A program made the translations under genes and the position numbers. From a phage, in sequence record PZ445467.1: a DNA stretch of 46,874 bases. One strand, 5' to 3'. The notes under the pieces were generated by a model, which saw only the letters and a list, made by a program, of their open reading frames with translations, searched no databases and was not told where the DNA came from. The stretch's first letter is position 1, and every line of letters begins with the position of its first letter. Below are positions 1,502 through 45,343 of this stretch, one piece after another.

Positions 1502-1708
1502 ATGCGCAGCTATGCAGGATTCACACAGGAGGAAAAAGAGCAGGTTTATTCACTGGCGCGCGCTGGTGTGCCTGATGAGGTGATTTGCCGTCGGTATGAC
1601 ATCGACGAGGATTTTCTGCTGCGCGTTCTGGATGATGTCTTCGTTAACCTGCAAGAGAGGCGCGGGTACAAGGGTATCTGCTGCAAGAATGATTTTTTGA
1701 GAGGGTAA
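1502..1708 (+). CDS. hypothetical protein (68 aa)
   Basis: ATG with GGAGA 7 nt upstream; within track ORF 1442..1708. Confidence 0.5.
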   Translation: MRSYAGFTQEEKEQVYSLARAGVPDEVICRRYDIDEDFLLRVLDDVFVNLQERRGYKGICCKNDFLRG

Positions 1709-1709
1709 T

Positions 1710-2117
1710 GTGTTTAATAATAAATTAAAGAAAAGAATCCGTGACGCTGCGGATAAGAAATACACCAAAAAGATTGACATATCATTCATCGACGGTGCTG
1801 GATTGTACAATCACGCCTGCCACCTGAATGCAGTGAACCGTGCGCGGGATGGTAGCTCGTGCGCAGTGGTTGAGGTGGTTATAATTAATGATGATGGCGC
1901 AACAGCTCATTACATCAATATGCAGTCGGACGGTTCTTATGTTGATTACACGCTCGGCTGGCACTGGTCTGGCGCTGATTACCGATTTGTGCGATTTGTT
2001 CCGTTTACTGAATGGTCGGATATTACAGGCTCGTTAAGCAGACTGAAGGCCGGGCTGTGCAGGTCAGTGGCTAAATGGCAGAAGTTGTTGATGATAACTG
2101 ATGGTGAACTTTGCTGA
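1710..2117 (+). CDS. hypothetical protein (135 aa, GTG start)
   Basis: ORF abuts previous stop; no in-frame ATG near the start. Confidence 0.45.
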   Translation: MFNNKLKKRIRDAADKKYTKKIDISFIDGAGLYNHACHLNAVNRARDGSSCAVVEVVIINDDGATAHYINMQSDGSYVDYTLGWHWSGADYRFVRFVPFTEWSDITGSLSRLKAGLCRSVAKWQKLLMITDGELC

Positions 2118-2126
2118 GGTGATGTG

Positions 2127-2300
2127 ATGAAAATCGAAGGTGATTACGGGCAGTATATTATGATTGATAAGGATTTTGAATACGGAAGCGATCTACTAGT
2201 TGTCAGGCAGACAGGTGATGTAATAGTTGTTGCAATTGAGCAAGCAGAGCAACTAATCGAAGTCCTGCAACGCTGGGTTAATGGTGAGGAGATTGAGTGA
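2127..2300 (+). CDS. hypothetical protein (57 aa)
   Basis: ATG after GAGGTGA; stop overlaps next start; below ORF-track size cutoff. Confidence 0.4.
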   Translation: MKIEGDYGQYIMIDKDFEYGSDLLVVRQTGDVIVVAIEQAEQLIEVLQRWVNGEEIE

Positions 2301-2485
2301 TGAGCGTTTATTTTATTCATGCTGAAGTGCTTGGTGGTGGCGATATTGTTACCAAGGTTTGCGCGATAGCTACGACATCAAACGCCAATGAAGCGTTTGA
2401 TTGGTTTTTAGGTCAGGAATTGGTTGCAAAATACGAAATAAAAGGCTACGACGTCATCATTGATAAACTTGAAAAGGTGGAGTGA
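2300..2485 (+). CDS. hypothetical protein (61 aa)
   Basis: ATG 8 nt after GAGGAG; coupled to neighbours. Confidence 0.45.
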   Translation: MSVYFIHAEVLGGGDIVTKVCAIATTSNANEAFDWFLGQELVAKYEIKGYDVIIDKLEKVE

Positions 2486-2685
2486 TGGATAGAAAACATC
2501 TTCACGAAATGGCGGTCGAACTTAGAAAAAACTTTGAGAGCATCTGGTTTGATAGTCATGATAAATTCAATAAGCAGTATCAGGTTTACGCAAAATGCAG
2601 AGGGTTAGTGATTGGTGATAGAATGGAAAATGCCGTACTCCATCATAGCAACGCCACTATGCACAGGCGAGCATTCGACTACTGA
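2485..2685 (+). CDS. hypothetical protein (66 aa)
   Basis: ATG after AAGGTGGAG; ATGA-type overlap with previous stop. Confidence 0.45.
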   Translation: MDRKHLHEMAVELRKNFESIWFDSHDKFNKQYQVYAKCRGLVIGDRMENAVLHHSNATMHRRAFDY

Positions 2686-2697
2686 TACCATGCTATA

Positions 2698-2735: not shown

Positions 2736-4148
2736 ATGTCAAAAATTGATGCATTAAACGCCTATATACGCGACCGCGTGGCGAACAATAACCGGGCGCT
2801 TCAGCAGCAGCGGCTTTGTGCTGGCGGGAAGAATCTGGACCAGAAACGTGAGTTCATGTGGAAGGAACTGGGCTACCCGCAGGAAATAACCGCCGAGATG
2901 TTCCGCTATGCATACGAGCGACATCCAGCCGCCGCCGCTGGCATTAACCGCATTATTAATAAATGCTGGCAGAAATATCCTGAAGTGGTCGAAGATGGCG
3001 AGGATGATAAGAACTCAACGCCGTGGGAGTTGTCCATCAACGATATGATGAAGCGTGCCTATCCGTTCATCAAAGAGGCCGACAAGCGCAACGCCATCAA
3101 CAGATACTCCGCTGTTATCCTGCAAATCCGCGATGGTCGCCAGTGGAGTGAGCCGGTAGACATCACCAAAACCCGCCGCATTAAAGATAAATCCATTGTT
3201 CGCTTTATCCCAGTATGGGAAGAGCAACTCCGCGTCAGCGCATGGAATAACGATGAAACAAGTGAAGACTACGGCATGCCTGAGATGTACGAATATCAGG
3301 AAAGCGCCGTAGAGGATTTCGATAGCGACGGCAAGCCTGAGCGTTCCGTGCAGATTCATCCTGATCGCATTATCATTCTGGCAGAGGGTAGCTTCGATGG
3401 CAGTATGTTCAGTGGCATCCCGATGCTACGTGCTGGCTACAACAGCCTTATCGACATGGCTAAGGTTTCCGGTAGTTCAGCAGAAGGCTTCCTGAAGAAT
3501 GCCAGCCGTCAACTGGCTGTTAACTACACGAAGGACAACGTAACGCCAGCAAGCCTTGCACAGTCAATGGGTGTATCTCAGGATGAGCTTATTGACATCA
3601 TGAATGACAATATCGAGATGCTGAATTCTGGCATTGACGCTGCACTATTTAGCATGGGCGCCGAGACTCAGGTGTTATCCGTAACGCCAGCTGACCCGAA
3701 ACCAACATGGGAAGTGGCTGCCAACCAGTTCGCTGCATCAATGGCGCTTCCGTTCACCGTCATTTTCGGGCAGCAAACCGGACGCCTTGCGAGTGATGAA
3801 GACAAGATGCAGGAGGCGATGACTGCCAAGCAGCGCCGAGAAACATGGGTGGATTATGTTATCTCAATGTTCGTTGAGCGCATGATTCAGTTCGGCATCG
3901 TCGATAAAGCACCGGAAAATGGCTACAAGGTTAAGTGGGACGACCTGCTTGCTCCATCAGAGCTGGATAAGGCGGAGTTGCTGTCTAAGCTCGCCACTGC
4001 GAACAAGTCGTTCTTTGATGCTGGTCAATCTGCGTTGCTTACCGTCGATGAGGCTCGCGGCATGGTTGGTATGGAGCCGATTGAACTTGATGAAAGTTAT
4101 CGCGAAGACACGCCACCGGAAGATGAAAATGAAGATACTCCGGTTTAA
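2736..4148 (+). CDS. portal protein
   Basis: 470-aa ORF in the canonical position downstream of terL; size typical of portal proteins. Confidence 0.7.
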
Positions 4149-5082
4149 CGCAAGACTTCCGCAGCCGCGCATATCGCAGAGCCTGACCGACCCGTTAGGC
4201 GCTGCAACCCGCATGTCGAAGATGGACAAGGTGATAACGCGCAAATATAAGCAACTCAGGACTCGTGCGCTTGAGTTGTTTCGCACCATTCCGCATAGTC
4301 AGACTAACGCAGAATCAAGCGGTCTGTATTTCTATGATTTCAGTAGTGCGCGCGCCGCTACTTTCATGGATGAGTTGCAGGCGCTGATTGACGAGATTCT
4401 GCTGGAAGGTGACGACTTCAGTCACGGCAGGATGTGGGCCAATGTGTTCATCGGTGATGCGTATCAGGCAGGAACGCAGAAGGCCAACTCTGAACTATCA
4501 AGCCTGTCTCCGGTTTATGCCGAGCAAAGGCCTATTGCCGCGATACTCTACAGTGAGCCATATCTGAATCGGCTGCGGCTTGCGTATACAGCTGGTTACT
4601 CGGACTGGCGAGGATTGAGTGATTACTCACGCCAACAACTGGCATCCGTCATTATGGAAGGCATTGCCCGTGGTGCCAATCCTCGAGATGTTGAGGCTGA
4701 TATTGTTAAGCGTGTTGACGTGTCACATAGTTACGCGAAGCAGATAGCGCAGACTGAAATCACCGGAACGCTGCGGCAGGCTAACAGGAGAGAAGTCATT
4801 GAGGCTCGCGAGGAATTAGGTATTGAAACGGTGATGCTGTGGCAATCGGCATTATTGCCTGGTCGAACGAGATTTACTCACGCGGCACGGCACGGGCGGT
4901 TTTACGCGCCAGAGGAGATTGACACGTTCTATAGCGAGAATGGCAATAGATATAATTGCCACTGTGCACAAGTACCAACATTGATAATGGATGGCAAGCC
5001 AGTCATTCTTGAGTCGTCGCAGGAAAGGCTTGATAAGCAGCGTGAAGCGTGGCAATCAGCCAATAAAAAGCCCTCTAAGTGA
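4129..5082 (+). CDS. head morphogenesis protein (Mu F / SPP1 gp7-like)
   Basis: ORF overlapping portal 3' end; ATG 4129 has GGAAG 6 nt upstream (alternative ATG 4123 or 4213); position and size fit MuF-like minor head protein. Confidence 0.6.
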
Positions 5083-5098
5083 GGGCTTGGTTTTATCT
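5069..5098 (+). terminator. rho-independent terminator
   Basis: stem AGCCCTC/GAGGGCT overlapping the stop codon, followed by TGGTTTTAT. Confidence 0.55.
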
Positions 5099-5104
5099 TA
5101 TCAG

Positions 5105-5182
5105 CATACACAGAACGAATATTATTATCGCATACACAGAACGAATATTATTATCGCATACACAGAACGAATATTATTATCG
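5105..5182. repeat. three perfect tandem copies of a 26-bp unit CATACACAGAACGAATATTATTATCG
   Basis: read directly: units at 5105-5130, 5131-5156, 5157-5182; intergenic between convergent genes. Confidence 0.9.
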
Positions 5183-5217
5183 CATAGCACAATATCTCTA
5201 CGACGCTGAATATTGTT

Positions 5218-5826
5218 TTAATCATCAAGTTTCACGCCGGGAATTTTGCCTGCTGCGATGGCTTCATAAATTAGCTTAGCCTCATCCTCGCGCTTGTAAT
5301 CTTGCGCTACCATTTCTAATACCGCGCAGATAGATTCAAGTACAGCCTCATGCTTCCTTTCTGCTTCTGTGCGAAATGGGATGAAAACATCCTTATTGGA
5401 TGGGGTTATTGCGTAGTAAATCTCACCAGATGGTCTGATAACTATTTTTTCGCCATCAAGACCAATAACCTTGACTTTTCCCCATGACGTTCCGTTGCTG
5501 ATATACTCACATTCACACCCAACTGGCGGCAGTCCTTCTCCGTTCCATGCTGAATTTTTCGATGCTGCGAGTGCTGCTTTGTATTGCCAATAGGTTACTA
5601 TCGACTCCTTATGGTCGGAAGATAATTGCGTAGCCCATTCTTCTCCATACCAGAAATGCACAAGGCTATTTCCTGTGTGATGTTTCCATGAGAACCCATC
5701 ATAGTGTGGGTCATTTGTGTCCCATGCGCACAGCGAACCGTCATTATCTTGAGTAATTGACAGCGCGTTTTGAGGCCACCAACCACGCTTAGGCAATTCT
5801 TGAACTAACAGGTCGATAAGTTTCAT
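5218..5826 (-). CDS. hypothetical protein (202 aa)
   Basis: ATG preceded by GGAGAA; last gene of a four-gene leftward block. Confidence 0.55.
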   Translation of the reverse strand: MKLIDLLVQELPKRGWWPQNALSITQDNDGSLCAWDTNDPHYDGFSWKHHTGNSLVHFWYGEEWATQLSSDHKESIVTYWQYKAALAASKNSAWNGEGLPPVGCECEYISNGTSWGKVKVIGLDGEKIVIRPSGEIYYAITPSNKDVFIPFRTEAERKHEAVLESICAVLEMVAQDYKREDEAKLIYEAIAAGKIPGVKLDD

Positions 5827-5838
5827 TTTTGTTCTCCG

Positions 5839-6054
5839 TTAATAATTTGGCTTTACGTCTTTCATTGTTAGTGGCTTCCATCCACTTGCGATTGCAATAT
5901 CAATACAATCCTCAAGCGTTTCAGCTTTTATTGGCTCACCAACTTCACTATCATCAAATTTTCTCTGTATTTGATAGCCATCTACGACATAAAGAATCTC
6001 TACAGAACCATGTAGTGTGTGCATCGACTCAAGCCATTGCAGGTGGTAGCTCAT
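5839..6054 (-). CDS. hypothetical protein (71 aa)
   Basis: ATG start; ATGA overlap with upstream gene stop. Confidence 0.45.
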   Translation of the reverse strand: MSYHLQWLESMHTLHGSVEILYVVDGYQIQRKFDDSEVGEPIKAETLEDCIDIAIASGWKPLTMKDVKPNY

Positions 6055-6320
6055 TTTGTTCCCCCTAATGCCTTATTAACCGCAGCACGCGCATTATCTA
6101 GAGCGCGGCGCTTACTTGATGTTGTCCAGACTTTGCCGGAGTGGTCGTCGTAGATTTCCAGTAGTTGCTGGAGTGCTGATAGCATGGCCTTGTTATTATC
6201 GTGGCAATACCCAACAGAAAAGCCATGCCATAATTCATCCTTTTCTCTATCGGTCATGTCGCCAAACCCAACCGAATCAAACCATTCAATAAATAATTGG
6301 TACACTTCGCGTTGCGTCAT
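6051..6320 (-). CDS. hypothetical protein (89 aa)
   Basis: ATG at 6320 preceded by GAGG; track ORF extends to a GTG at 6332. Confidence 0.5.
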   Translation of the reverse strand: MTQREVYQLFIEWFDSVGFGDMTDREKDELWHGFSVGYCHDNNKAMLSALQQLLEIYDDHSGKVWTTSSKRRALDNARAAVNKALGGTK

Positions 6321-6328
6321 TATCAACC

Positions 6329-6490
6329 TCACTTAATATATTCAATAATCTCAACTTCACGCATCTGCACCAGACTAAATGGCGCAACCACTTTGCCGCA
6401 TGGGCGGATTTTGATTTGCTCAAGGCCGAACATTCCGCAGCGTCCGTTTTCTTTGAATTTGACCATTACCATAATTTCTTCCTCACTCAT
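6329..6490 (-). CDS. hypothetical small protein (53 aa)
   Basis: ORF MSEEEIMVMVKFKENGRCGMF...; no clear SD; below ORF-track cutoff. Confidence 0.3.
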   Translation of the reverse strand: MSEEEIMVMVKFKENGRCGMFGLEQIKIRPCGKVVAPFSLVQMREVEIIEYIK

Positions 6491-6577
6491 CGTTTGATGT
6501 AGATACTATGCACCACCACTCAATCTACGTCAATAGCCATTGTGATAGAATTAATCATTATTTGAACAGGAGGCAGA
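6491..6577. promoter_or_regulatory. divergent promoter region with two copies of the ATCTAC motif
   Basis: motif at 6521-6533 (+) and inverted copy at 6496-6506; TGTGATAGAAT -10-like at 6541-6551; AGGAGG SD before ATG 6578. Confidence 0.5.
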
Positions 6578-9308: not shown

Positions 9309-9412
9309 ATTTACTACTCCTTTTTCGAAATTTATTATTGACGAATCTACGTCACTTAGTCAATACTGTTGGTGTAGAATGATTCTACCACAACGAAAGA
9401 GGTGATGTGGAA
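9309..9412. promoter_or_regulatory. divergent promoter region with ATCTAC motif copies and a 15-bp palindrome
   Basis: TTGACG 9338-9343; motif 9343-9355; palindrome GTAGAATGATTCTAC 9374-9388. Confidence 0.5.
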
Positions 9413-9865: not shown

Positions 9866-10083
9866 GAAAGTTCAGTACGTTAGTTGATTTAATTTTTGCT
9901 GACATAAGTGAGGATAACGCCAGAAGCGAGAAGTCAAAAAATCAGCGTCAGGATATTACGTTTCGCACACTGCTTAAGCAATCAATGCGCAATAAGAAGG
10001 AGTGGAGATACAGGCGCGACAGAGTTCTGATAAGACTGTGCAAATTGAATATGAATAAGATACTTAAGGATATGACCAAATGA
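9862..10083 (+). CDS. hypothetical protein (73 aa)
   Basis: ATG 9862 after GGAGAA, ATGA overlap with previous stop; track ORF starts at 9853. Confidence 0.45.
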   Translation: MRKFSTLVDLIFADISEDNARSEKSKNQRQDITFRTLLKQSMRNKKEWRYRRDRVLIRLCKLNMNKILKDMTK

Positions 10084-10328
10084 CAGCACCACATATGCCA
10101 ATGATGAATGATAGCGGGTTGCTGTGCTGCCCATTCTGTGGCGGGAATGAAGTTTACTTGAATATTGATTTAGTGCTTGTATCTGTCGAATGCGGAGATT
10201 GCTGTGCAAGTTCAGGTGAATGGGGTTCACCGGAAACCGCTGTCAGGCACTGGAACACCCGCAACGGACACCTATACACCGCAGACGACTTCAATCAGGC
10301 AGCAGAGGAGCGTGATTATGGACTATAA
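10080..10328 (+). CDS. Lar-family restriction alleviation protein-like Zn-ribbon protein
   Basis: 82 aa with CPFCGG...ECGDCC zinc-ribbon pattern and HWNTR segment typical of Lar-like proteins. Confidence 0.5.
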   Translation: MTAPHMPMMNDSGLLCCPFCGGNEVYLNIDLVLVSVECGDCCASSGEWGSPETAVRHWNTRNGHLYTADDFNQAAEERDYGL

Positions 10329-10806
10329 ATCACAAATCATGCGCGTGATTATGAATCACCCCGGTTCAACGCGCGCATATATTGAGAAGCATTGCGGAGG
10401 AAAGCATTCAAGCACCACAACGCATCGTTTGCATGAGATGCTTGCGCTTGGATTCATTCGCCGCGAGAAGTCCGTGATTCGCGGTGGGAAGTGGCAGTAT
10501 AAATATTTCATCTCTGATGATGCAGCTGGTATTGATGATGCTATTAAGTGCCATTTGCTTGATAACGCTGGCGCAGAGGTGAAAGAAATCAGCGTAGCCA
10601 CTGGCATTGATTACCGAATCGTGAAAAGCCGCATCCGCATTATGTTTCATAACGGTGATGTAACGCGAAGATATGACCACCACAAGAAGCTGTGGCGTTA
10701 TTCTTGGCATGAGAAGGAAGTTAACGTCAGCAACCTGTTTAATTCACTTCTTCGCAATGTAAGAGGTCGTCATGGGGAAAGCCAAACGCAAGAAGCAAGA
10801 GTATGA
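10318..10806 (+). CDS. putative DNA-binding protein with two winged-helix-like repeats (162 aa)
   Basis: ATG 7 nt after GAGGAG; two related segments (IMRVIMNHPGSTRAYI / KCHLLDNAGAEVKEISVATGIDYRIV). Confidence 0.4.
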   Translation: MDYKSQIMRVIMNHPGSTRAYIEKHCGGKHSSTTTHRLHEMLALGFIRREKSVIRGGKWQYKYFISDDAAGIDDAIKCHLLDNAGAEVKEISVATGIDYRIVKSRIRIMFHNGDVTRRYDHHKKLWRYSWHEKEVNVSNLFNSLLRNVRGRHGESQTQEARV

Positions 10807-10948
10807 GCCATTACCGCCATGCGAAATGTCAGGAATGCCGCAGCAGGAGGATGTGATTCTCACCGAGGCTGAGTGGCGCAAGGTGGCAAGAGTGCAAATC
10901 ATGTTCCGCAAACTTGCTGAGGACGTACTAAATGAGATGGGCTATTAA
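10772..10948 (+). CDS. hypothetical small protein (58 aa), overlaps both neighbours
   Basis: ATG after AAGAGG; below ORF-track cutoff. Confidence 0.3.
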   Translation: MGKAKRKKQEYEPLPPCEMSGMPQQEDVILTEAEWRKVARVQIMFRKLAEDVLNEMGY

Positions 10949-11279
10949 GCATAAATCTGGCAGAACTCTGTTTATTACATCGGATGAGTTTATTGCCAAT
11001 AACCGTAGAAAGATGGGCTGGATAGTGGAGGAAGTGAAGATGACGAGTAGAGAGCAGTTTGAGGAGTGGGCCAAGGAGAACGGAATGAGTCTTGTTTATG
11101 GTGACTGTGATTATGTGTATTCGCCAACCGTATGGGCGTGGAAAGCATGGCGAGCATCGCGCTCAGCAATTGAGATTGAATTGCCAGCGGTAGAGATTGG
11201 TTATGAAATGATGGAATACTACGAGCCTCAACAGGTTATTGAGGCAATCAAACAAGCAGGCTTAAAGGTGAAAAAATGA
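10932..11279 (+). CDS. hypothetical protein (115 aa; alternative start ATG 11040 after GAGGAAG)
   Basis: track ORF; GAGGAC upstream of 10932. Confidence 0.45.
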   Translation: MRWAIKHKSGRTLFITSDEFIANNRRKMGWIVEEVKMTSREQFEEWAKENGMSLVYGDCDYVYSPTVWAWKAWRASRSAIEIELPAVEIGYEMMEYYEPQQVIEAIKQAGLKVKK

Positions 11280-16059: not shown

Positions 16060-16856
16060 TAAACGGACCTCATGAATGCTTTAATGAATTCTGCTGCGAC
16101 TTGTGGAACTATGGCATTGCCATAACCGCGCAATCGTCCCACTCTTGCGGATACCCCATGAGTTGCCTCGCAAAATCCGCCTGGTATGACTCTAGTTTCC
16201 TTATCTGCTCCATGGTTGGGTTTCCATGAATCCCATAAACATGAAGCCACATCTGGCGATAAAGAGTATCGTTCCTGAATTTTCCGTCCTTTCTGTAAAA
16301 TGTCTTGCTGAGATCCCCGTAATCCTTCCATCCTCGCGCCGTTGGTGTCGCCCATCCTCGCGCCAAAGATGATTCTTTTCCTTTCCTGTGGAGAGCCGAC
16401 GCTGCAAGCTGGCAATACTGACGCCCCGCAGGCGTAGCCTTTGTCTTCCAGGTTAAGGAATACAAAATCGAGCCAGTGCTTCCCAATTGCTGCTGCAACC
16501 TGCTCTCCAAACAGCAATTCAGGCTTGCACTCTCTGATGAGCCTGAGAAATGCTGGGGCAAGGTGTCGATCGTCGTCAAATCCGAGAGACTTACCGGCAA
16601 CGCTAAACGGCTGGCAAGGTGGTGATCCTGTCCAGAGTCGAGTGCTTTCTGGTATTCCTGCCAGCTGGAGTGCAAGGGGCCACCCTCCGATTCCGGCAAA
16701 GAAGTGACACTGTGTAAATCCTTCCAGGTCTGAAGGGGTGACTTCGGTGATTGATCGTTCATCGACATATCCGTAAGGAATTAGTTTATTGTTAATTAAT
16801 TCACGCAGCCATGCCGCTGCGCCCTTGTCCCACTCATTGTAATAGTGGACCATCAT
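16059..16856 (-). CDS. DNA (cytosine-5)-methyltransferase, orphan; TRD/motif IX appear to lie in the +1 frame
   Basis: frame A has FAGIGG (I), PPCQPFSVAG (IV), GEQV (VI), QERKR (VIII), GNAIVPQVAAEF (X); overlapping ORF 16109..16768 carries IRKL...ARQLMGYP (motif IX-like). Confidence 0.7.
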   Translation of the reverse strand: MMVHYYNEWDKGAAAWLRELINNKLIPYGYVDERSITEVTPSDLEGFTQCHFFAGIGGWPLALQLAGIPESTRLWTGSPPCQPFSVAGKSLGFDDDRHLAPAFLRLIRECKPELLFGEQVAAAIGKHWLDFVFLNLEDKGYACGASVLPACSVGSPQERKRIIFGARMGDTNGARMEGLRGSQQDILQKGRKIQERYSLSPDVASCLWDSWKPNHGADKETRVIPGGFCEATHGVSARVGRLRGYGNAIVPQVAAEFIKAFMRSV

Positions 16857-17665
16857 CACATCTTCTCCAGAATTGCCATCACCTCGTGAATATCAGCAAC
16901 AGGAATCTGGATAAACTCCTCATTCTCTGCCACTACATGACCAGCAGGAAGAATAACGTGGTCAGCTGGCTTCAGTAACTCAATCAGTCGGTCTACTGGC
17001 TTAATCTTTTTCGACTTAAGCACCTTCGCCGTTACCTTATCCTTGCCTTGCGCCTTCGCTTCTTCGACTGCCTCGTCGATAACTTTAACCGCATCATCGC
17101 CATGTTCGCGAGTTACTGCTACGGCATTTGCATAGCTGATTTGCCCTGCACTGATTCGCGCTTTTACTTCGGCTGGCACATCACCCAGTGACAGGTGCAT
17201 CTGCACGTCAGAAACTGAGCGCCCTACCTTCTTGGCGATTTCCTCGTTGGTCCAGCCAAAACCCTTCAGTCGCGTGTAAGCCTTTGCGCGTTCAAACGGG
17301 TCAAGCTGCTTACCCTGACTGGACGACACCATGAAGGCGATTTTATCTGCTTCGCCTCCTGTGAAATCCTTGCACTCAATACGAACAATTGGTGCGCCAC
17401 GCTCAATGGCACGCAACGCTCCGAGATAGCGATGCTGACCATCAAGAATGCGGATTCCCTTCTCGTCTGGAATAACTGTTAATGCTGGCAATGGCTGACC
17501 TGACTCCCAGCACTGCGCGAAATACTCCACATGCTGCTCATCTGCTTCGCGGATGTTGTATCCTGGTTCCAGATAGATTTGCTCAACTGGCACGAGATAT
17601 GTCTTGTTTACCGCGATTCCGTTGCGCGTTTCTTTGTCTGAATAGATTTTGCTTAGTGTTTTCAT
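16856..17665 (-). CDS. ParB-like nuclease/partition-domain protein (269 aa)
   Basis: ILDGQHRYLGA ParB-box-like segment followed by a likely HTH region; GAGGAG SD; stop overlaps MTase start. Confidence 0.55.
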   Translation of the reverse strand: MKTLSKIYSDKETRNGIAVNKTYLVPVEQIYLEPGYNIREADEQHVEYFAQCWESGQPLPALTVIPDEKGIRILDGQHRYLGALRAIERGAPIVRIECKDFTGGEADKIAFMVSSSQGKQLDPFERAKAYTRLKGFGWTNEEIAKKVGRSVSDVQMHLSLGDVPAEVKARISAGQISYANAVAVTREHGDDAVKVIDEAVEEAKAQGKDKVTAKVLKSKKIKPVDRLIELLKPADHVILPAGHVVAENEEFIQIPVADIHEVMAILEKM

Positions 17666-17668
17666 TGT

Positions 17669-18292
17669 TTACTCCTCATCACCGGAATTAGCAATATCGT
17701 AAAACTGACCGTATGTTATCTGCTTAAAGTTATCAGGTATCGTTACCTGTCCATGACCTTCACCTTTTGTATTTGGCACGGCAAAAATCAGGCAATCATC
17801 CTTTTGCGGGTGTTTGCCGCCATGAGTAGACAGCATTGCAAAACCAAATCCGCGACCAGATTGCTCTCCGATTCCGGTGCGTGCGATGCCATAATGATTA
17901 ACAATATAGTCTTTCCATTCTGGCAATAACTTTAATTTCTCGTTTGCCTCGCGCATCACCGCGTCCAGATTTTTGTTGTATTCCCGCCCGTCTTTTGTGT
18001 TTCCTTTTCCGCGAGCCACGATTACACGCTGACCATCCAAGAACTCTTCGCGCTTTATTGTCACAGGGCACGGAAATTCAAACTGCTTACTCCACACAAA
18101 GCTCTCAAGTAAGCCACCACCGACTGCTCCCCAGCTACGTGTCGTGGTGAAAGCGATAGCGCCAACCTTTTTCATGGCGTCGCCAAGAACTTCATTGCGG
18201 CGCTTTTGGATGTCATCATATGCGTCAATAACTTTCTTAACATCAGCACCTTCAACCATGTAATAATCATAATGTTTTGCATTGCTGCTCAT
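17669..18292 (-). CDS. hypothetical protein (207 aa), first gene of leftward operon
   Basis: ATG 18292 is 8 nt after GAGGTGA; track ORF extends to 18310. Confidence 0.5.
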   Translation of the reverse strand: MSSNAKHYDYYMVEGADVKKVIDAYDDIQKRRNEVLGDAMKKVGAIAFTTTRSWGAVGGGLLESFVWSKQFEFPCPVTIKREEFLDGQRVIVARGKGNTKDGREYNKNLDAVMREANEKLKLLPEWKDYIVNHYGIARTGIGEQSGRGFGFAMLSTHGGKHPQKDDCLIFAVPNTKGEGHGQVTIPDNFKQITYGQFYDIANSGDEE

Positions 18293-18310: not shown

Positions 18311-18409
18311 TTATTGTTGTTTCTACGTCACTAACTATAAACGCCACATCAATCTACGTCAACAGGAATATGCTAAAATCATGCTAATCAAAAAACAGGA
18401 GATTTGAGC
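18311..18409. promoter_or_regulatory. divergent promoter region with two ATCTAC motif copies
   Basis: motifs at 18319-18331 and 18350-18363; TGCTAAAAT extended -10 at 18371-18379; AGGAG SD before ATG 18410. Confidence 0.5.
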
Positions 18410-24074: not shown

Positions 24075-27015
24075 TGGCTGAAGAAGTCGGCGGAATTGTC
24101 TATGAAGTCGGGATGGATGTATCCGGACTTAAAGCTGGCACAAGTTCAGCGGAATCAGAATTATCAAAATTTGACTCCGCTGTAAGTGGCTCCACGAAGA
24201 ATTTAAATAAACTTGATGGTCAGGCTGACTCAACTGGCAAGGCATTCTCCTCCCTTGTCTCCGTGGTTAAAAGCATTGATGCAACACTCAGCAAGATGGC
24301 AGCTTCCAGTGATGGTGCAGCAAGCGCTGTCAAGTCAACATCGCAATCTGCTGAGTCAGCGAATCAGGTTATCGATGCATTAAATCAGCAACTTGCCATG
24401 ATGCAGCAGCAACAGCAACAAGCCGCTGTATCAACAGGAAGGCTGGAAACCTCAATTAATGCCGTTACGACTGCTATTCGTGAGCTTGGAACATCAACTG
24501 GCGGCGCTGGCGCAAGCATATCTGGCACAGAAAGATTAATTGAAAGCCTCGGCAATCAGGTTGCCATTCTTGAAGAGCAAATGGAAAACGGCGCGAGAAG
24601 TGCGGCAATTCTTGCGGCGCAACTCAGAGCTGGAGATGGCGCAACTGACGCGCAAAAGGCCAAGATTGCTGAGCTGACTGGTCGCCTGTACGACATGAAG
24701 AATGGCACAGAGTCGGCTGGCAAATCCACAAACGGATTCAGGAACGCGCTACAACAGGGCGGTTATCAGGTTCAGGACTTTATTGTTCAGGTTCAGAGTG
24801 GGCAGTCTGCTCTTGTTGCATTCAGTCAGCAGGGTTCGCAACTTGCATCTGTATTCAGTCCGGTGGCTGGCGCAGTGTTAACGATAGCGACAGTTATCGC
24901 CGGCTCACTGATGGCCTCACTTAGTAACGGCAAGAATGCCATTAATGCCATGAAGGATGCCATATCTGCAATGGATCAGGTCATCAGTGTTTCCAGTAAC
25001 GGCGTGGCAGCATACTCAGATAAGTTTGCAGCACTGGCAAAAGCCAACACAACAGTTGCGACACTGATGCGCCAGCAAGCGCAACTTGAACTTTCAGCGG
25101 CTCTCTCTAAGGTATCGAAAGAAGTATCAAAAGCATCAGGTGAGTTCGTCACCTTTGGTGACAGACTTTTCGCATCTTTTGCTGGTGCAAACGTCAGCGT
25201 TAAATCATTCAACGATTACCTCTCAATGCTGAATATCACTACCAATGATTTCAGCGAGGCAATGAAGCAGGCTGCATCTGCCGGACTTGCCGGGCAATCC
25301 ACGATGAATAATATGATTGCCACCGTTGGCGCTCTGGCAAGTCGATTTGATTTGACCGACCAGCAAGCATTTGAATTTGCTAAACAACTCTCTGAAATCG
25401 CCAAAAACCCGAGCAATGAAAAACTTAATGCTTTAATTGTTACTCTGCAAAAGGTAGGTGAAGGACAGTCATCTGGCGCACAAAAGGCACGAGAATATGC
25501 TGCTCGTTTGCTGGAAATTGCCACCACAACAACTGACGCAACAATGCGCCTGAAAGCTCTTAAGGAGATGACTGACTCCTTAACGTCAAGTCAGGACAAG
25601 GCATTGCAAACTGCTCGTCAGACACTGTTTATTGAGAAGCAAACTGGCGATGAAAAACTAAAAGCTCAGGCATGGCGTGATGCGGAGGCTCAGGGATTAA
25701 AGCAGAATACCGCTGCGTTTCGTGAATATTACAATGTCAGACTTGAGACGTACCGTCAGCAGGAAAAAAACGCTCAGGCAGCAAAAGATGAACGTAATGC
25801 AAACAACCAGCTAAAAACTGAATTAAAGCAACAGGAAACAATCCAGCAGAAATTAAATAAACTGCGGCAGGAAGCTCTACTTGCTGGTCAGGCAGAATCC
25901 ACAAAAGAACTATCCCGCGAGCAAGCCATTCTCAACGCGCAGCAATCGCTTGGCAAAGCTGCCACTCAGGAGCAAATAAAACTGGCTGGTGAGTACGCTG
26001 CGAAGATTTGGGACCAGAAGAATGCACTGAAGGAACAGGCGGAAGCGGAGAAAGAAAAGCAGCGGGTAGAAAAATCATATCAGGGATTACGTGCCATTGC
26101 GTCACCAACGACTGGCATTGACAGCGAATACCAGCAACGCATGGCTGACCTTGATGCTTATGCTGCTGCGTACCCACAGAAAATTACAGAGATTGAACAG
26201 ACTCGCGCGTCCATTGAAGCACAATACCGCCAGCAGAGAATGGATGCTATGTGGGCTGAATGGCAGCAACAAAGCCTCGGAGCGCAACTGTTTGGCACCG
26301 CGCTGGATTCTGCAATGAGCACGGCATCAAACAGCATCACCGGATTGCTGACAGGTACAATGAGCGTTCAGGATGCCATGCGCAGTCTCGGCTCTACAGT
26401 GCTTAACTCGCTGGTAAATAGCTTCGTCGAGATGGGCGTGCAGTGGGTAAAATCTGCCGTTATGGGACAGACTGCACAGGTTACGGCTACGGCAACCACA
26501 ACGGCTGCGCAAACGGCAGGACTGGCAACTACAACAGCAGCATCCACTGCGGCGGCAGCCACCACCACGGCAGCGTGGACTCCGGCAGCAATCGTCGCAT
26601 CAATCGGTTCATTCGGCGGCGCTGCTGCAATTGGGGTAGGCGCTGTTCTTGGGGCGCTGGCGATGGGTATCGCTGGCAAGCGAAAAAATGGTGGTCCTGT
26701 TAGCGCCGGAAGTATGTACGAAGTGGGCGAAAATGGCTTACCTGAGATATTCCAGGCATCCAACGGTCGCCAGTACATGATTCCCGGAAATGACGGTTCA
26801 GTTATCAGCAACAAAGACCTGACAGGCGGCAGCGGTGGCGTCGTGGTTTATAATAGCATCATCAATAACAGCTCAGCGCAGGTTAGCAGCAGCGCCAGAG
26901 ATAATGGTGATGGCAGCGTAACAGTTGAGACGATTGTGAGTGATATTGAGAACAACGGCGCGATAGGGCAGGCTATTTCAAGAAATTACTCAACAAACCG
27001 GAGAGCAACAGAATA

Positions 27016-39432: not shown

Positions 39433-39507
39433 AGCTACTAACCTTTGTTGATGTTTCTACGTCAGTTAGCTTATACTCAATCTACACCAACAATCAAGGG
39501 TCAATTT
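39433..39507. promoter_or_regulatory. divergent promoter region (helicase leftward, primase rightward) with two ATCTAC motif copies
   Basis: TTGATG 39448-39453, TATACT 39472-39477; motifs 39453-39465 and 39478-39491. Confidence 0.5.
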
Positions 39508-43042: not shown

Positions 43043-43486
43043 ATTATGATTGAATCATATCATAAGTATTGAATCATGCAACATCAAATACGACTCACGT
43101 GGGTAACGTGGGGCAGCCGTGGGGAACATCACCTTCCCCACGAACTTTTACTCTAAGTATATGTAATATAATATAATTATTATTATTTGGGTTAATGGGT
43201 AATATTATTATTCATATTATAGATAGTAATTAACATAATATTAACAAATGGATTATTTGAATATATTTATAAGGGGATGGGTATGAAATCTGCCCCTTTT
43301 TACCCACGAAAAATAAAAACATTCAAATCAATAATTTACGATGAAAAACGTGGGGCAACCAACCTTCCCCACGACCTGCCCCACGAGCAAAAATTTACCC
43401 CACGGGCACGTTTTTAACGCATCCCTGTTGACGTAGAATCATCGTTGATGTAGATTGAACTCATCGAAACAAACGAGGGTGAAGAG
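43043..43486. promoter_or_regulatory. origin-like region: two clusters of CGTGGGG/CCCCACG heptamers flanking a ~155-bp AT-rich tract, plus divergent promoters
   Basis: heptamer copies between 43098-43142 and 43301-43407; AT-rich 43145-43300; TTGACG 43428-43433 and TAGATT 43451-43456; inverted motif copies 43429-43439, 43446-43457. Confidence 0.5.
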
Positions 43487-44220: not shown

Positions 44221-44495
44221 GTGAAGAATCACGCGGAACAGTAAAAGCAAAAACATACTCAGTACCGAGAAGCGCAATTCCGCATCCTCCTGATGGTGAT
44301 GGATATTACGTGACTGTTGTTGAGATTGCTGACTACATGGCCTGCCTCAACAGAATCACAGAAATGAGCGTCGAAAACTATCACATGAAGAATCGCATTG
44401 CAGAGCTTGAGTCTGCATTAAATCGCCATTATGAGTTACCTGACGTTTATGATATGGCAGTAAAGCAATTCGAAAGCCTGGCTAAAAGTGAATAG
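44217..44495 (+). CDS. hypothetical protein (92 aa)
   Basis: ATGA overlap with previous gene. Confidence 0.45.
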   Translation: MSEESRGTVKAKTYSVPRSAIPHPPDGDGYYVTVVEIADYMACLNRITEMSVENYHMKNRIAELESALNRHYELPDVYDMAVKQFESLAKSE

Positions 44496-44558
44496 CTACC
44501 CGTTCATATTAATTATCAGTGCGCTCTATGTGGCGCACGCTTTAGTGGAGATGTATGG

Positions 44559-44945
44559 ATGAGCAATAGATATATTTATCACTACAACGCAATATCTGTG
44601 GGCGGCGCGTCATCAGTGGCTGGCATCGCTCAGTTGACATTCAGAATTAAATCGCAAGAAGATGTCGAGATGCTGAAGAGTTTGATTGGCCGTGACGGTT
44701 TCACAGCAGTAGCAATCGCATCTCTTTCATATCTCTGGCGAGAGAATGATGACGAAGGGTATGACGCAACAAAATTCGACCAGGCGTTTTTGATTAACAA
44801 ATTCTACGAGCGTTATCCGCTTCCTGAATTTAAGAGTGATTCAGAGCGAGCAGAGGCACTTGGTTACTTCATGACTGGTGCAGAATTACAGCGACTTGGA
44901 AAGTTTATCGAATACAACGATGAGGATGATAGTGATGATTACTAA
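44559..44945 (+). CDS. hypothetical protein (128 aa) with acidic C-terminus
   Basis: ATG after GGAG. Confidence 0.5.
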   Translation: MSNRYIYHYNAISVGGASSVAGIAQLTFRIKSQEDVEMLKSLIGRDGFTAVAIASLSYLWRENDDEGYDATKFDQAFLINKFYERYPLPEFKSDSERAEALGYFMTGAELQRLGKFIEYNDEDDSDDY

Positions 44946-45045
44946 ACAACAACGACGCCGCTACACCACTGGCGCTAAAATCTTCCTTACTGTTTATGTG
45001 CTGGCACTGGTGGCGGCTATTGCAGGAGTTGTGCATTATGTTTAA
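44935..45045 (+). CDS. small membrane peptide (36 aa)
   Basis: MITKQQRRRYTTGAKIFLTVYVLALVAAIAGVVHYV; overlaps both neighbours; speculative. Confidence 0.25.
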   Translation: MITKQQRRRYTTGAKIFLTVYVLALVAAIAGVVHYV

Positions 45046-45343
45046 TCAATTATCTGATTTTTATAAAGCATATTCAGACTGGGTTGCCGCTGGCGCAACA
45101 GAAGGCAAACCATTTAGCCGTCACGTCGGGCTTTGTGGCTCTATTTTTCTTTACCTTTCTATGAAAGGATATCCAATAAAAGATAGAAAAATTACTCTTG
45201 AGATGATGCGAGCGCAGTTTGTTAAGGCTGGTCTTGACCGTGAGTACCCGTTTAATAACCAAAAGAACCCATACCGTATGGAAAGCATTAATGGGCTGAT
45301 TCACACCAACAAGAATCGCATCCAGTGGGTTAAAAAGGAGTAG
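45038..45343 (+). CDS. hypothetical protein (101 aa), flanked by 19-bp direct repeats
   Basis: ATG 45038 after AGGAG; track ORF starts at 44996. Confidence 0.45.
   Translation: MFNQLSDFYKAYSDWVAAGATEGKPFSRHVGLCGSIFLYLSMKGYPIKDRKITLEMMRAQFVKAGLDREYPFNNQKNPYRMESINGLIHTNKNRIQWVKKE

Follow-up and report, generated by a model that had tools for sequence, protein, structure and literature searches.

Three perfect tandem copies of a 26-bp unit, CATACACAGAACGAATATTATTATCG, occupy positions 5105-5182 of the window, the 46,874-nt stretch of phage DNA analysed here (record PZ445467.1). The array is a 52-bp gain relative to all relatives. It is probably a very recent, lineage-private triplication that arose by slippage at microhomology and most likely has no function as an array; we infer both the slippage mechanism and the neutrality. 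Among the explanations offered by a first-pass annotation made from the letters of the sequence, recent expansion by replication slippage is the one that fits, given the single-copy relatives, the otherwise identical sequence of the nearest genome, and the microhomology at the unit borders.

Structure and genomic setting of the array

The three copies run head to tail without a spacer (5105-5130, 5131-5156, and 5157-5182), and both a reading of the sequence and Tandem Repeats Finder bear out the number, length, and position of the repeats given in the first-pass annotation. Tandem Repeats Finder delimits a longer tract at 5098-5191 with a period of 26, 3.5 copies, 97% matches, and a score of 170. 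The extra half copy is accounted for by two degenerate flanks, the partial copy TTATCAG upstream (5098-5104) and the degenerate partial copy CATAGCACA downstream (5183-5191). With the initial GCATA of the unit, the upstream partial copy forms the left member of a short direct repeat, TTATC[A]GCATA, and the downstream partial copy is the right member of this microhomology, TTATC-GCATA. A repeat search returned 31-nt copies with GCATA common to both ends. The longest dyad within the unit is the 6-bp AATATT, and no inverted repeat was reported within it. The unit has no other match in the window on either strand with up to three mismatches, and none of 100 dinucleotide-preserving shuffles of the sequence produced a match at the same tolerance. 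A coding role for the array was rejected. The open reading frames that run into it (4991-5209, 5079-5279, and 4929-5111) overlap or lie antisense to real genes and cross the terminator, and they are not credible because a 26-bp unit changes the frame with each copy and the frames would be shifted in the single-copy relatives.

The window comprises a complete genome that is circularly permuted and begins with the large terminase gene. By sequence comparison the phage is a Skatevirus-like lytic siphophage, and its nearest genome is that of BASEL phage Bas78 (Escherichia phage SandraMuster_Bas78). Bas77-81 are small siphoviruses of the Skatevirus group with genomes of 46-48 kb and a dependence on the O16 O-antigen (PMC11990801). 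Literature on genome ends and packaging in Skatevirus yielded nothing useful. Whole-genome BLAST reveals a mosaic relationship to Bas78 in which the aligned segments are 89.5-99.8% identical and several stretches are matchless. Gaps in the BLAST alignment leave window positions 1707-2686, 9866-11255, 17671-18288, 24127-25906, and 44227-45335 without a close Bas78 counterpart save for a few short matches, and these five segments appear to be modules swapped between genomes that are otherwise 93-99.8% identical. Four HNH endonucleases are annotated in Bas78, which fits frequent homing-type mosaicism in the group. In Bas80 an HNH endonuclease gene directly follows the ~200-aa leftward gene (locus L003, 4862-5347), and a 71-aa gene is found at that place in the window (~5826-5839) and in Bas78.

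The array lies between convergent genes. The plus-strand gene at 4129-5082 takes its start from the Bas78 annotation (the longest open reading frame begins at 3919), and its product has a Phage_Mu_F domain (E = 4e-11) and is labeled head morphogenesis protein in Bas78. The minus-strand gene at 5218-5826 encodes a 202-aa protein (phrog_7798) and closes a leftward operon, with a stop codon that adjoins the conserved noncoding block described below. Three small genes of 71, 93, and 53 aa precede it in the operon (5839-6490, minus strand), and the four leftward genes (5218-6490) have no Pfam matches and matched only PHROGs families of unknown function. A promoter-like site for the operon, TTGACG-17-CATAGT, is located at 6505-6533 on the minus strand.

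Positions 5068-5088 contain a stem-loop predicted to act as a bidirectional intrinsic terminator. It has an 8-bp stem with five G-C pairs, a 5-nt loop, and T-runs on both strands, and the TGA stop of the head morphogenesis gene falls within it. The G+C-rich stem-loop with a T-run on each strand between convergent genes is the arrangement that defines a bidirectional intrinsic terminator, and the annotations of two relatives also call it a terminator, in ASO78B on both strands and in Skate on the minus strand. The setting described in the first-pass annotation, just past a terminator at the 3' side of the head morphogenesis gene and between convergent genes, is therefore confirmed. Dozens of IMG/VR viral contigs (loci L040-L104), some of them 57-104 kb long, contain an exact match to the 22-mer of the terminator stem-loop (AAAGCCCTCTAAKTGAGGGCTT) between seemingly unrelated flanks. 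The match may be due to a mobile terminator that these contigs share or to convergent evolution of a simple, strong hairpin. The array is 3' of the terminator on the plus strand, and on the minus strand it is placed between the stop codon of the 202-aa gene and the same terminator. This position makes it part of the predicted 3'UTR of the four-gene leftward operon, and we infer that the region is transcribed as such.

Copy number in related phages

Alignment of the whole intergenic region of Bas78, Bas77, and Bas80 to the window requires one 52-bp gap, which leaves one copy of the unit in each genome. Bas78 is otherwise identical to the window over the 170 bp compared. A sensitive BLAST search with positions 5060-5225 against 50,697 phage records returned 53 records that cover at least 80% of the query. 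All 53 span 111-114 bp where the window has 166 bp and thus contain one copy each. A single copy is also present in all 20 IMG/VR viral contigs that have the spacer. Base-by-base inspection of a 17-genome alignment (Skatevirus, Macdonaldcampvirus, Segzyvirus, Swiduovirus, Deseoctovirus, Saltrevirus, and unclassified phages) found one copy throughout outside the window. Of 88 terminator-bearing loci from phage records and IMG/VR, 37 have the block with a single unit, 50 have no block, and the window alone has three copies. No two-copy intermediate was found among the relatives examined. The comparison of copy number across related phages that the first-pass annotation had proposed thus gives one copy in every relative that carries the block, Bas78 included.

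The copy-to-copy junction, TTATTATCGCATRCACARAAC, is a sequence possible only in the expanded allele and was used as a probe for other carriers. Searches of IMG/VR, JGI/ENA metagenomes, and GTDB genomes returned 18 matches, none with BLAST similarity to the window, and all were unrelated chance occurrences. Searches of 5,426 complete E. coli genomes and of PLSDB, in line with the suggestion to look for the unit in host DNA, matched neither the unit nor the block. The first-pass annotation also held that copy number varying freely among otherwise identical isolates, with no binding activity, would mark the array as neutral slippage. The single-copy relatives, which are close rather than identical genomes, essentially bear out the copy-number part of this statement.

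The conserved block and competing explanations

The unit is contained in a conserved noncoding block at 5096-5217 (minus strand; alignments A2 and A3) that measures 83 bp in single-copy relatives (for example, 4193-4275 of locus L001). Nucleotide diversity across 24 distinct genomes with a homologous upstream gene is 0.047 for the 83-bp block and 0.052 for the 26-bp unit alone. The corresponding values for the first, second, and third codon positions of the Mu-F gene in 24 genomes are 0.086, 0.043, and 0.362. The block is conserved like the second codon positions of the head gene, and its diversity is ~8 times below that of the third positions. Identity to Bas78 is 90-98% even where the downstream gene is essentially non-homologous (35-56% identity) or the upstream gene differs. 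Conserved and non-homologous DNA meet at the block, which may be a recombination hotspot, another option named in the first-pass annotation. The last 16-20 codons of the leftward gene, ending in IYEAIAAGKIPGVKLDD before the stop (window 5218-5275, minus strand; alignment A2, columns 232-285), are likewise kept across genera, between which the remainder of the gene is non-homologous. The conserved island therefore runs from the terminator into the 3' end of this gene. Degenerate direct repeats are present inside the block, TTATC-GCATA twice and GAATATTRTT twice at a 39-bp spacing, and they hint at older duplications of the same kind as the array.

The phage group is polymorphic for what lies between the terminator and the ~200-aa leftward gene. 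In NX263, seszw, and ST1UNAM this slot holds a small open reading frame or other sequence in place of the block (937-1131 of locus L018 for NX263, 930-960 of L019 for seszw clone 20L, and 935-1010 of L020 for ST1UNAM), which shows the block to be dispensable for the group. Loci L039, L043, and L052 are further examples of the polymorphic slot, and some relatives have a small minus-strand open reading frame or other sequence there. Span lengths and sequence comparison indicate that ~173 bp of the slot filling has apparently been deleted in the seszw mutant clone 20L, which suggests that the slot itself is dispensable.

Folding of the minus-strand RNA predicts a 21-bp imperfect stem with five G-U pairs. 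Positions 5189-5209 (minus strand) are the candidate 5' arm, and each repeat unit can supply the 3' arm. The stem is absent from the plus-strand RNA, and the 114-nt segment has a predicted folding energy of -30.7 kcal/mol on the minus strand versus -19.0 kcal/mol on the plus strand. The z score of -3.39 for this segment is mostly owed to the terminator; the stem region alone gives z scores from -1.9 to +0.3 in seven relatives, and three of the seven have a different minimum-energy fold. In a set of 29 distinct sequences, pairing is kept in 98.4% of the alignment cells. Compatible changes on one side of the stem account for 16 cells and broken pairs for 10, so that compatible changes are not clearly in excess over breaks, and no pair has a compensatory double change in this set. 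No Rfam family came near its gathering score, and the sub-threshold matches were driven by the terminator. Predicted folds of the RNA with three copies retain both the terminator hairpin and the upstream stem, which pairs with the adjacent copy when the growing transcript is folded and with the distal copy at equilibrium. Stem-loops in phage 3'UTRs can serve as RNase III sites or 3'-end stabilisers, as in lambda sib and the T7 R sites. The candidate is likewise an imperfect stem of ~21 bp that lies on the transcribed strand shortly before an intrinsic terminator, and its G-U pairs make it strand-specific. It differs from them in that it is predicted only, lacks covariation and a stability excess over shuffled sequences, and in several relatives gives way to another minimum-energy fold. 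These folding results leave an RNA hairpin in the block as a weak possibility.

The main competitor to neutral slippage is adaptive amplification, in which the unit belongs to a protein-binding site or RNA element and three copies alter its dose or the stability or processing of the leftward mRNA 3' end. The conservation of the block and of the unit at the level of second codon positions in the adjacent essential gene argues for such an element, as do the persistence of the block beside a non-homologous downstream gene, the internal degenerate repeats of the kind seen in multi-site elements, and a stem that can use the unit as its 3' arm on the minus-strand RNA and does not form on the other strand. 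Against this reading, more than one copy is found in one genome alone among >70 carriers, and the block is swapped out in NX263, seszw, and ST1UNAM. The hairpin by itself is no stabler than shuffled sequences and is not the preferred fold in several of the relatives folded; compensatory changes are missing, and Rfam offers no family above threshold. We consider adaptive amplification unlikely. A related proposal makes the 83-bp block a functional cis-element of Skatevirus-like phages, either a 3'UTR RNA element or a region with several protein-binding sites, under selection no weaker than at sites that change amino acids; the window phage would then be a natural variant with one module tripled. 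It seems similarly doubtful. An assembly or sequencing artefact is less probable still. It would posit a true genome with one copy and extra copies from mis-assembly or a chimeric read, and the restriction of the expansion to this genome is what such an error would produce. The copies, however, are exact and in register, their flanks are clean and identical to Bas78, and the errors expected from noisy long reads are missing. An ordinary short read is longer than a 78-bp array, and assembly software is more prone to collapsing such repeats than to expanding them, which also counts against an artefact.

The first-pass annotation raised the possibility of a centromere-like site, similar to parS or sopC, for the ParB-like protein of the phage. 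The genome does encode a protein with ParB HTH (PF17762, E = 2.5e-11) and KorB domains in Pfam searches, and tandem arrays do occur as centromeres, as in F sopC. The gene for this ParB/KorB-like HTH protein (16856-17665, minus strand) is unlinked to the array, 11.7 kb away, and the genes beside it encode a C5 methyltransferase and a protein of 114 aa that matched nothing in Pfam. Relatives whose protein is 98-100% identical have one copy of the unit; in seszw the protein is 98.9-99.3% identical and yet the genomes examined lack the whole block, and no match to the block is seen in Klebsiella phages, in which the protein is 81% identical. ParA is absent from the Bas78 annotation, as are genes for lysogeny or plasmid maintenance, and the group was isolated and phenotyped by plaque formation. 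No canonical parS was found within three mismatches, and the only dyad in the unit is AATATT. Partition centromeres include F sopC with 12 43-bp repeats, P1 parS, and chromosomal parS. Like them, the window combines tandem direct repeats with a gene for a ParB-type HTH protein. It differs in having no annotated ParA, an array apart from the ParB-like gene, no inverted repeat in the unit, no array in the relatives that keep the protein, and a group whose members are treated as lytic plaque formers. The features expected of a centromere, namely a ParA and ParB operon beside the site, co-inheritance with the ParB gene, and a dyad-symmetric box, were not found. The centromere reading was rejected on the Pfam domains, the distribution of the protein versus the block, the missing ParA annotation, and the parS search, and we regard it as very improbable. 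A better operator candidate is the motif TCTACGTCA, which occurs six times in the window versus 0.23 expected (6524-6532, 9346-9354, 18322-18330, 18353-18361, and 39456-39464 on the plus strand and 43429-43437 on the minus strand). The copies are located at promoter-like regions, and two of them lie just upstream of the ParB/KorB-like operon. The reverse complement of the motif overlaps the -35-like TTGACG of the predicted leftward promoter at 6505-6533. TCTACGTCA is probably a shared early-promoter or operator motif, and it is a more plausible operator for a KorB-like regulator than the 26-bp repeat. Creation or multiplication of a promoter by the repeats is just as remote as a centromere. 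The proposed sites are a plus-strand antisense promoter, TTATCA-16-TATTAT, and a minus-strand extended -10 element, TGCGATAAT, that would drive a short RNA to the terminator. A 9/12 promoter match overlaps the array on each strand, and on the minus strand TGCGATAAT can be seen by eye at every junction of units. The region nonetheless has no more promoter-like sites than chance would give (4 found versus 4.6 expected), which led to the rejection of this reading, and the internal copies have a poor -35 (TTATCG). The IMG/VR locus L048 differs immediately upstream of the block, which indicates that no conserved minus-strand promoter precedes it. The short direct repeats in an A+T-rich noncoding stretch are also reminiscent of iteron-type origins; the window differs from these in having one-copy relatives, no adjacent initiator gene, and an annotated primase and helicase >30 kb away. 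The neighbors of the array are the head morphogenesis gene and small genes of unknown function, and the best match to the DnaA-box consensus found by eye is 7 of 9. A replication origin called from GC skew was rejected as well, as the skew simply follows the direction of the genes and shows nothing distinctive at this site.

Origin of the array and its significance

The single-copy allele has GCATA at both borders of the unit, each time after TTATC, in the arrangement TTATC[A]GCATA ... TTATC-GCATA with the two members 26 bp apart. Short direct repeats that border a unit are the substrate expected for slipped-strand mispairing or short-homology annealing. The ancestral one-copy segment bordered by this imperfect direct repeat would have been duplicated either by slipped-strand mispairing during replication or by short-homology annealing through the recombination proteins of the phage itself. 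The new 26-bp perfect homology would then have made a further gain easier and carried the locus from one to three copies, an addition of 52 bp. The annotation of Bas78 includes exonuclease VIII, SSB, and a RusA-like resolvase, so a phage recombination system is plausibly present, and these proteins could promote such a duplication. The alleles CATACAC and AACGAAT are found in all three copies and in the single copy of Bas78, and most relatives have CATGCAC and AACAAAT. The copies share the alleles of the Bas78 lineage and thus were made in place and not imported.

The first-pass annotation took the perfect identity of the copies as a sign of functional constraint, a conclusion that does not follow for copies so young. 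Local divergence from Bas78 is ~0.5% (13 mismatches in 2,453 bp), and at this divergence perfect identity of the 52 new bases is the neutral expectation and provides no evidence of constraint. Two points stand against the neutral reading. The unit lies within a noncoding block under strong apparent purifying selection, so its tripling need not be neutral and could be selected, and the change from one to three copies takes two events or one double slip. The array resembles microhomology-mediated tandem duplications and VNTR slippage in its perfect head-to-tail copies, its one-copy near relative, the GCATA after TTATC exactly at the borders, and its local alleles. It differs from VNTR loci in that a single expanded allele is known, with neither polymorphism of the locus nor the event itself observed. 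The sole predictable effect of the triplication would be a leftward operon 3'UTR lengthened by 52 nt that contains two extra copies of any element to which the unit belongs; the terminator and the candidate upstream hairpin should still be able to form with three copies.

The repeat expansion itself is of little consequence, as a private and probably neutral length variant. The array could be used to mark the strain or to illustrate, on a small scale, duplication driven by microhomology in a phage annotated with recombination proteins of its own. The spacer around it is among the most conserved stretches of the region across at least six named genera, encodes nothing recognisable, and is replaceable in some relatives. 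If the block were a functional cis-element, the tripled module would measurably alter expression of the leftward operon or whatever binds the block. If it is a regulatory or RNA element, the phages with one copy, three copies, and no block would constitute a ready allelic series.
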